Positions 22,144-22,201 of a stretch of DNA of 26,968 nucleotides are shown one piece after another. Numbering within the stretch: position 1 is the stretch's first letter; each line of letters starts with the position of its first letter. The translations under genes were made by a program, and so were the position numbers. The stretch lies in NCBI GenBank assembly GCA_043752905.1, contig JAYUXQ010000575.1:1-26968 (forward strand), given 5' to 3'. The DNA is from Nannocystis sp. (GTDB lineage: Bacteria > Myxococcota_A > Polyangia > Nannocystales > Nannocystaceae). The notes under the pieces were generated by a model. That model searched no databases and was not told the DNA's origin. It worked only from the letters and a program-made list of their open reading frames with translations.

Positions 22144-22201
22144 CTGTATCGTTTTGAAACACATGGGTGATGTGTATCGTTTCGATACACAGCCCGTATC
22201 G
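22144..22201. promoter_or_regulatory. Putative operator in an AT-richer leader. It comprises a perfect 19-bp palindrome GTGTATCG-TTT-CGATACAC (22172..22190), a degenerate copy CTGTATCG-TTT-TGAAACAC (22144..22162, 6/8 right-arm matches) whose centre lies 28 bp upstream of the perfect palindrome's centre, and a third GTATCG half-site at 22196..22201. It lies 155-200 bp upstream of the MVP start.
   Basis: Read directly: the reverse complement of GTGTATCG is CGATACAC. Local GC content drops markedly between 22100 and 22260, which is unusual in this genome. Confidence 0.5.

Follow-up and report, generated by a model that had tools for sequence, protein, structure and literature searches.

Analysis of a 26,968-nucleotide stretch of Nannocystis sp. 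DNA (hereafter the window) and of orthologous loci revealed two dyad-symmetric sites upstream of the MVP gene, and these dyads probably form a tandem regulatory module of the MVP promoter, bound by a dimeric regulator that acts in trans and possibly has an NtrC/Fis-type DNA-binding domain. The element is most likely of an ordinary kind, yet it constitutes the first regulatory handle on an enigmatic bacterial gene. A search of the literature on bacterial MVP, including bioRxiv 10.1101/872010, revealed nothing on its regulation or on when or why it is expressed.

The region at positions 22144-22201 of the window reads CTGTATCGTTTTGAAACACATGGGTGATGTGTATCGTTTCGATACACAGCCCGTATCG. A perfect 9-3-9 palindrome, TGTGTATCG-TTT-CGATACACA, with 9-bp arms and a 3-nucleotide centre, occupies positions 22171-22191; the 19-mer described in a first-pass annotation of this DNA is thereby confirmed and extended by one base on each side. 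The 17 bp at positions 22173-22189, TGTATCG-TTT-CGATACA, are designated site 2, with the centre at about -127 relative to the inferred MVP transcription start. Site 1, a degenerate 17-bp dyad (TGTATCG-TTT-TGAAACA; TGTATCGTTTTGAAACA) at positions 22145-22161, lies upstream of the perfect dyad at a start-to-start offset of 28 bp, with the centre at about -155. This degenerate copy shows 3 mismatches to the 19-mer; in a direct-repeat comparison of the two, 2 of 19 aligned bases differ (89% identity). The two dyads also make up a long inverted repeat with each other. The spacer between them (22162-22172) is 11 bp long, and its length (10-11 bp) is kept across the loci, its sequence not. A possible extra half-site, CGTATCG, is found on the plus strand at positions 22195-22201, 22 bp past the start of site 2, and is weakly conserved: similar words at an offset of 21-22 in relatives read TGCATCC (L001 and L002) and GGCACCG (L082), and in L084 the word is displaced. 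The degenerate copy and the GTATCG half-site at 22196-22201, the third copy of this word, had both been proposed earlier and were both found as proposed; a fourth copy of GTATCG lies at 22271-22276.

Palindromes with arms of at least 9 bp occur three times in the window, against 5.0 ± 2.7 expected from Markov simulations. The perfect dyad is the sole case in the window with such arms and at least four A/T, and a palindrome of this kind appeared in 21% of simulated windows. The palindrome by itself is within chance in this GC-rich window; the pair of dyads is beyond chance, with a second copy at three mismatches or fewer from the 19-mer found in none of 100 shuffles. The word GTATCG is present seven times, which is the chance level (7.4 expected), and five of the seven copies fall inside positions 22146-22276. 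The 58 bp of 22144-22201 have a GC content of 44.8%, against 71.4% for the window, and form its second most AT-rich stretch. The most AT-rich 58-mer, at positions 2169-2226, is located at the start of a globin-domain gene (1172-2200, minus strand). The sites had been described as the only strongly AT-rich palindromic element of the window; the description stands for the palindrome with its A/T content and gives way for AT-richness as such, in which 2169-2226 comes first. An intergenic region of 480 bp follows this AT-rich stretch, and the word TGGCACGGGTTTGCA was observed in it at positions 2347-2361 of the plus strand; it is sigma-54-like but has GG-N9-GC spacing, and no obvious gene lies downstream of it.

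A total of 165 MVP loci were assembled from genomes, metagenomes and protein-collection contigs, and 147 MVP relatives were found in genomes. Nannocystis MAGs are the best genomic relatives, sharing 88-91% identity in MVP, and a metagenome contig, L081, is identical to the window. Six distinct sequences were found to carry the dyad pair upstream of MVP, namely the window (= L081), L082, L084, L001, L002 and L163. L001 and L002 stem from the MAGs JBGAUO01 and NZ_JADJNN01, respectively. Five of these sequences have a site spacing of 28 bp, and L163 has one of 27 bp; divergence is seen both in the 10-11 bp spacer and in the flanking sequence. In the six lineages the MVP protein differs by up to ~14% and mean intergenic identity is 52%, with both sites held in register; the register of the degenerate site 1 of the window is occupied by an orthologous site in all five of the others. 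Comparison of site 2 among the six orthologs revealed the invariant positions TG...C.....GA..CA, and the T before that C changes solely in L163 (to C). The half-site variants TGTATCG, TGCATCG, TGCACCG, TGTTTCA and TGTGTCG give the consensus TGYDYCR, with an A/T-rich 3-bp centre. A position-weight matrix built from the 12 MVP-upstream sites found nothing else of comparable score in 1.39 Mb of related loci. The earlier proposal of sites for a symmetric, dimeric factor is supported by this recurrence in six sequences, the 27-28 bp spacing and the freely varying 10-11 bp spacer; the two dyads behave like genuine binding sites under selection.

The MVP homologue of the window (846 aa; 22346-24886, plus strand; Pfam MVP_shoulder 3.6e-28, Vault_3 2.8e-08) is the fourth gene of a conserved co-directional cluster in the order 210-aa protein, small TPR protein, 301-aa protein and MVP. 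The third gene (21143-22048, plus strand), for the 301-aa protein, has no assigned function. A large Ser/Thr kinase-TPR gene is divergent from the cluster. The cluster (20189-22048 plus MVP) is kept in the window, L001, L002, L082, L085 and L162, and the divergent kinase gene (16858-20013) is kept in the window, L001 and L002. The kinase of the window matches generic kinase models of PADLOC. The 301-aa protein possesses the DHH-like motifs VDHHDHE, HFDLDG and GLGGGMPTR and has no match in Pfam, NCBIfam or PDB. In L084 the upstream neighbour is a different, divergent cytochrome-c/propeller gene and both dyads still adjoin MVP; the dyads therefore go with MVP and not with the 3' end of the 301-aa gene, which is not required for their presence.

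A cognate factor acting in trans had been suggested on the ground that no regulator gene lies adjacent, and searches with Pfam and NCBIfam agree, with no regulator gene detected in the 27-kb window. No DNA-binding protein was found among the neighbouring proteins by Pfam, NCBIfam, PADLOC and PDB searches, and no recognisable DNA-binding domain, nor an AAA+ or Fis-type helix-turn-helix domain of a sigma-54 activator, was seen in any ORF of the window; the factor may be encoded elsewhere in the genome. A tblastn search with an NtrC AAA+ segment gave no match in the window, L001, L002, L082, L084 or L163, and glnA and glnB, taken as a test for a nitrogen regulon, were not found in any of the collected sequence. 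Three distant loci from Myxococcales were observed to have sigma-54-type activator genes (56-58% identity to the NtrC AAA+ segment) at no more than 0.3-4 kb past MVP: at ~8700-10100 in L073, directly after MVP, at ~11500-12900 in L075 and at ~11400-12800 on the minus strand in L071.

The dyads are absent in L079, L083, L085, L087 and L162 despite MVP proteins 87-94% identical, and the further close MVP relatives L161, L164 and L165 lack them as well. A CheY-like receiver gene is located upstream of MVP in L079, L083 and L087. The dyad module is dispensable, since close relatives do without it, and its general importance is limited because the element is confined to a small, mostly uncultured Nannocystis-like clade, with relatives that lack it. 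At the expected place of the dyads in L162 (~2790-2900) and L085 (~2540-2650), CATCGA-N7-TCGATG and repeated CGATG words occur, together with TGCATCG and CGATGCA ~70 bp apart; these words may be a rearranged remnant of the dyad module. In L163, a serine-recombinase (resolvase) gene at positions 133-890 replaces most of the 301-aa gene, of which the last 56 codons are left, and the dyads are kept at their 27-bp spacing. L002, a long-read MAG, lacks the MVP promoter and codons 1-46 at positions 5960-6001, where the sequence jumps from just past the dyads into codon 47; either a deletion or faulty assembly would account for this. Other AT-rich repeats lie ~130-170 bp upstream of MVP in other Nannocystaceae lineages (L010, L011 and L018), for example ACATGTC-TTCACG-GACATGT in L018 and ATGTCC-N8-ATGTCC in L010, and suggest that different lineages may use different upstream regulators of MVP.

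Comparison of the MVP-proximal sequences revealed a conserved -10-like box. In the window it reads TATGCT (22296-22301, plus strand) and marks the putative MVP promoter; TATNCT occurs ~50 nt before the ATG in the closest relatives and 20-55 nt before it in other Nannocystaceae loci, and in other phyla the equivalent position upstream of MVP is taken by the canonical TTGAC-N17-TATAAT. In this clade TATNCT is preceded by conserved GGAGTATCGCGG or GGGGTTTCGCGG over the -35 region. The box of the window, GGAGTATCGCGG at 22268-22279 on the plus strand, includes the half-site-like GTATCG, and in all close relatives, the dyad-less L079, L083, L085 and L087 included, it reads GGAGTATCG or GGGGTTTCG. 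With its half-site-like GTWTCG core, this box may either bind the factor of the dyads close to the promoter or be no more than a -35 element. We infer that MVP transcription starts near the conserved TATNCT, which gives the dyad centres of about -127 and -155.

Site 2 lies 123, 123, 123, 93 and 84 bp from the -10 box in the loci compared, a variation by which helical phasing is not strictly kept. Because this conserved box lies 84-123 bp downstream of the dyads, they are judged to lie outside the mRNA leader, where they had been placed at first: a TATNCT ~50 nt before the ATG puts them upstream of the likely promoter. At ~105-165 bp upstream of the likely promoter, the dyads are in the position of an upstream-activating sequence or a remote operator. 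The true 5' leader contains a GC-rich hairpin, GCGACGG-GCAG-CCGTCGC (22313-22330, plus strand), just past the -10-like box. A leader hairpin recurs in relatives with other sequences, namely CGCCGC..GCGGCG in L079, L083 and L084, CGACGC..GCGTCG in L085 and L162, and GCGACG..CGTCGC in L003-L007; the folding z-scores are individually weak (-0.8 to -2.8).

A scan of the six dyad-bearing loci for sigma-54 -24/-12 elements (GG-N10-GC, TGGCAC-N5-TTGC) found no conserved element. The single 8/12 match, in the window, coincides with TATGCT, at which the relatives read TATCCT, TATTCT and TACACT; the GC that sigma-54 needs at -12 is not conserved, since this base of TATNCT is variable.

The first-pass annotation had read the sites as a cooperative operator. 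As classical repressor operators, the dyads would overlap, or lie just past the start of, an unrecognised second, lineage-specific promoter, which would be silenced by a pair of dimers binding cooperatively, in the manner of Tn10 tetO1/tetO2 or lambda OR. Palindromes of 17-19 bp at 10-11 bp from each other are tandem-operator-like; TTGAAA, a good -35-like hexamer, lies inside site 1 of the window, L082 and L084; and in L084 a mere ~35-80 bp separate the sites from the point at which the divergent gene starts. However, a scan of positions 21900-22500 found no sigma-70-like promoter, TTGAAA is not followed by a suitably spaced -10-like hexamer, and it is absent in L001, L002 and L163. The promoter elements conserved in the family lie more than 84 bp downstream, where the half-site-like GTATCG at 22271 is the sole overlap with a -35 region. 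The dyads start 84-123 bp upstream of the -10-like box, with no promoter-like site at the dyads themselves, and control of this classical type is considered unlikely.

The same two sites could instead serve as a protein-bound roadblock or boundary, at which the bound factor, without acting on the MVP promoter, would stop or tune transcription that runs on into MVP from the three-gene operon upstream. The position would suit such a role in the window, L001, L002, L082 and L163, where the dyads lie 25-100 bp past the stop codon of a co-directional gene and no convincing intrinsic terminator separates that stop codon from them. On the other hand, L084 has the dyads without any co-directional upstream gene, and L016 and others with the same gene order possess an ordinary hairpin-plus-T terminator and no dyads, which leaves a roadblock quite improbable. 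The dyads were also considered as an intrinsic terminator in their own right and rejected: five of the nine stem pairs are A/T, no T-run follows, and the terminator scan is silent on the dyads, its only two sites being weak, on the minus strand and away from them.

Analysis of base pairing was central to a further alternative, in which the dyads are transcribed as hairpins, either as a structured element of read-through transcripts or of a long leader, or as a small RNA beside MVP. Pairing in site 2 is kept through the double changes TGTATCG/CGATACA, TGCATCG/CGATGCA and TGTTTCA/TGAAACA, and symmetric double changes are found at four of the eight pairs of this site. On the plus strand 87.5% of cells are paired, six pairs are changed on both sides (a number reached by 10 of 500 shuffles), and the region of the window folds with a z-score of -2.25. 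Neither strand keeps both hairpins, however: 83% of site 1 and 92% of site 2 are paired on the plus strand, and 71% and 98%, respectively, on the minus strand. A mutually exclusive long hairpin of site 1 with site 2 scores equally, and co-variation between half-sites is as strong across the two sites as inside one site, so the signal reflects shared sequence and not pairing. Half-sites within a genome are closer to each other than orthologous half-sites are (mean distance 1.58 against 1.88, permutation p = 0.008), and the mean distance is no smaller for the two halves of one site (1.67) than for half-sites taken from different sites (1.54). This pattern favours a concerted drift of all four half-sites, as would be expected for one protein recogniser and not for base pairing. 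Because no strand keeps both hairpins, the alternative hairpin scores equally and the half-sites drift together, pairing was judged unlikely to be the cause of the conservation.

The setting of the dyads also speaks against transcribed hairpins, since the conserved promoter is downstream of them, neither an upstream promoter nor a U-tract terminator was found, and the L084 sites are in a divergent intergenic region. Rfam, at a permissive threshold, gave chance-level matches at most for positions 21900-22500 (best E = 1.6). A cis-regulatory or small RNA is disfavoured by the combination of inconsistent pairing on both strands, no pair-specific covariation and no Rfam match, and the probability of transcribed hairpins is very low. 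In eukaryotes, vault RNA accompanies MVP. The dyads read as a small two-hairpin RNA transcribed beside MVP would be a bacterial counterpart of it, with the double changes on the two sides of site 2 having arisen as compensation within a stem; we regard this as extremely improbable. It is also highly improbable that the dyads are a degenerating palindromic insertion of MITE or REP type, fixed in one small clade and without dedicated function: the patchy distribution among close relatives, the long mutual inverted repeat of the two sites and the resolvase gene near the dyads in L163 would fit it, but six lineages hold both sites in register with diverged spacer and flanks, and neither the 27-kb window nor the 1.39 Mb from related loci contains a further copy.

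For tandem regulatory sites, the preferred reading, the following course of events can be proposed. Each 17-bp site, with its TGYDYCR half-sites and A/T-rich 3-bp centre, would bind one dimer of a helix-turn-helix regulator, and the fixed centre distance of 27-28 bp would let the two dimers touch or form a higher oligomer. From about -127/-155 the complex would reach, through looped DNA or as an upstream activator, a weak promoter of sigma-70 type (TATCGC-N18-TATGCT), and the half-site-like -35 box may take part. The 60-bp fragment constitutes a handle with which the regulator could be fished out, and the signal to which the regulator responds would hint at the role of the bacterial vault-like protein.

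A number of known binding sites resemble the dyads in part. LexA boxes have the consensus CTGT-N8-ACAG in E. coli and CTRHAMRYBYGTTCAGS in Myxococcus. The earlier statement that the sites do not match the Myxococcus LexA box is borne out; CTGTAT resembles the E. coli half, but all sites have CTGT-N11-ACAG spacing. Among consensus sequences of parS, LexA, CRP/MrpC, NifA and LacI type, several are similar to the dyads in half-sites or outer triplets, with the spacing off by 1-3 bp. The NifA upstream sequence TGT-N10-ACA is located far upstream of its promoters, and MrpC/CRP-type sites read TGTY-N8-RACA. The dyads have the outer TGT...ACA in common with both, and the far-upstream position in common with the NifA sequence; unlike the latter, all 12 sites read TGT-N11-ACA, one base longer. 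The geometry of the dyads is that of NtrC sites, and also of TnrA sites for the 17-bp TGT-N11-ACA frame. An ECF-type promoter reading across both sites, TGAAAC-N17-CGTT, was rejected, GAAAC being absent from L001, L002 and L163. A full-text literature search for the motif words returned primers and unrelated sequences only.

In Tn10 tetO1/tetO2 and lambda OR1-OR2, adjacent dimers bind cooperatively and the operators overlap the promoters that they control. The dyads resemble these operators in consisting of two 17-19 bp palindromes placed ~7-11 bp apart, and differ from them in that over 100 bp separate them from the conserved elements of the promoter downstream.

Among myxobacteria, NmpR of Myxococcus binds two GCGCA-N5-TGCGC sites 14 bp apart, and the pattern described as usual for Myxococcus NtrC-like response regulators is a pair of closely spaced dyads located far upstream (PMC11841059). 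Like the NmpR sites, the dyads belong to a myxobacterial lineage and are paired dyad-symmetric sites upstream of a gene, one stronger and one weaker. They are unlike them in half-site sequence and dyad length, and NmpR targets have recognisable sigma-54 promoters. A GC-rich dyad, GCGCA-GACCAG-TGCGC, was observed at positions 22239-22254, with its centre ~61 bp before the predicted start; it exceeds the NmpR consensus GCGCA-N5-TGCGC (PMC11841059) by one base, is only partly conserved in L001, and is replaced by other palindromes in L082.

A further likeness in sequence is to the 17-bp NtrC consensus, TGCACCAnnnTGGTGCA (PMC8743547, PMC4987338). Site 1 of L163, TGCACCGTTTTGGTGCA, agrees with 13 of the 14 specified positions of this consensus in the same 7-3-7 frame. 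The sites of L001 and L002 and the second site of L163 agree at 9-10 of the 14, and the sites of the window, L082 and L084 at 7-9 (8 of 14 for the window's own). Judged by this gradation, the window sites may thus represent a C-to-T drifted version of an NtrC-like dyad. It had been noted earlier that the sites match no enhancer consensus; this is so for the window sites, and does not extend to the orthologs, which grade into the NtrC consensus. It is the dyad geometry, together with the sequence of this one ortholog in L163, that points to an NtrC/Fis-type domain in the putative factor. A perfect TGCACC-N5-GGTGCA was observed at positions 8683-8699 of L068, where, just past MVP, it overlaps the start codon of a small membrane-protein ORF on the minus strand; this single site is possibly due to chance.

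NtrC enhancers such as those of glnAp2 in enteric bacteria share with the dyads the 17-bp 7-3-7 symmetry, the A/T-rich centre and the arrangement of two tandem sites more than 100 bp upstream of the promoter, as counted from the predicted start. The glnAp2 sites are spaced by ~32 bp, against 27-28 bp between the dyad centres. Unlike NtrC enhancers, the window dyads have the half-site TGTATCG and not TGCACCA, are accompanied by neither a sigma-54 -24/-12 promoter nor a nearby activator gene, and have no known link to nitrogen genes. The dyads were not assigned to classical enhancers, because the sigma-54 promoter is missing; for the same reason the factor would belong to another family, unless it is an activator of unconventional type that works together with the housekeeping polymerase. 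An NtrC-like activator of the sigma-70 promoter, which would tie bacterial vault expression to nutrient status, has a small though real chance of being correct, and it is ranked likelier, and less surprising, than the vault-RNA reading.

Relatives of enhancer-binding proteins that act with sigma-70 have been described, namely NtrC of Rhodobacter capsulatus, NtrC of Caulobacter and VpsR of Vibrio (bioRxiv 10.1101/2023.06.06.543975; PMC6158489). The combination of upstream sites with a housekeeping-type promoter is common to these systems and the dyads; with their Fis-type DNA-binding domain, these proteins constitute a precedent, not a test, for a putative counterpart in this organism. If the factor that recognises the MVP-upstream dyads were NtrC-like and worked without a sigma-54 promoter, this myxobacterial case would join the few known unconventional enhancer-binding proteins.
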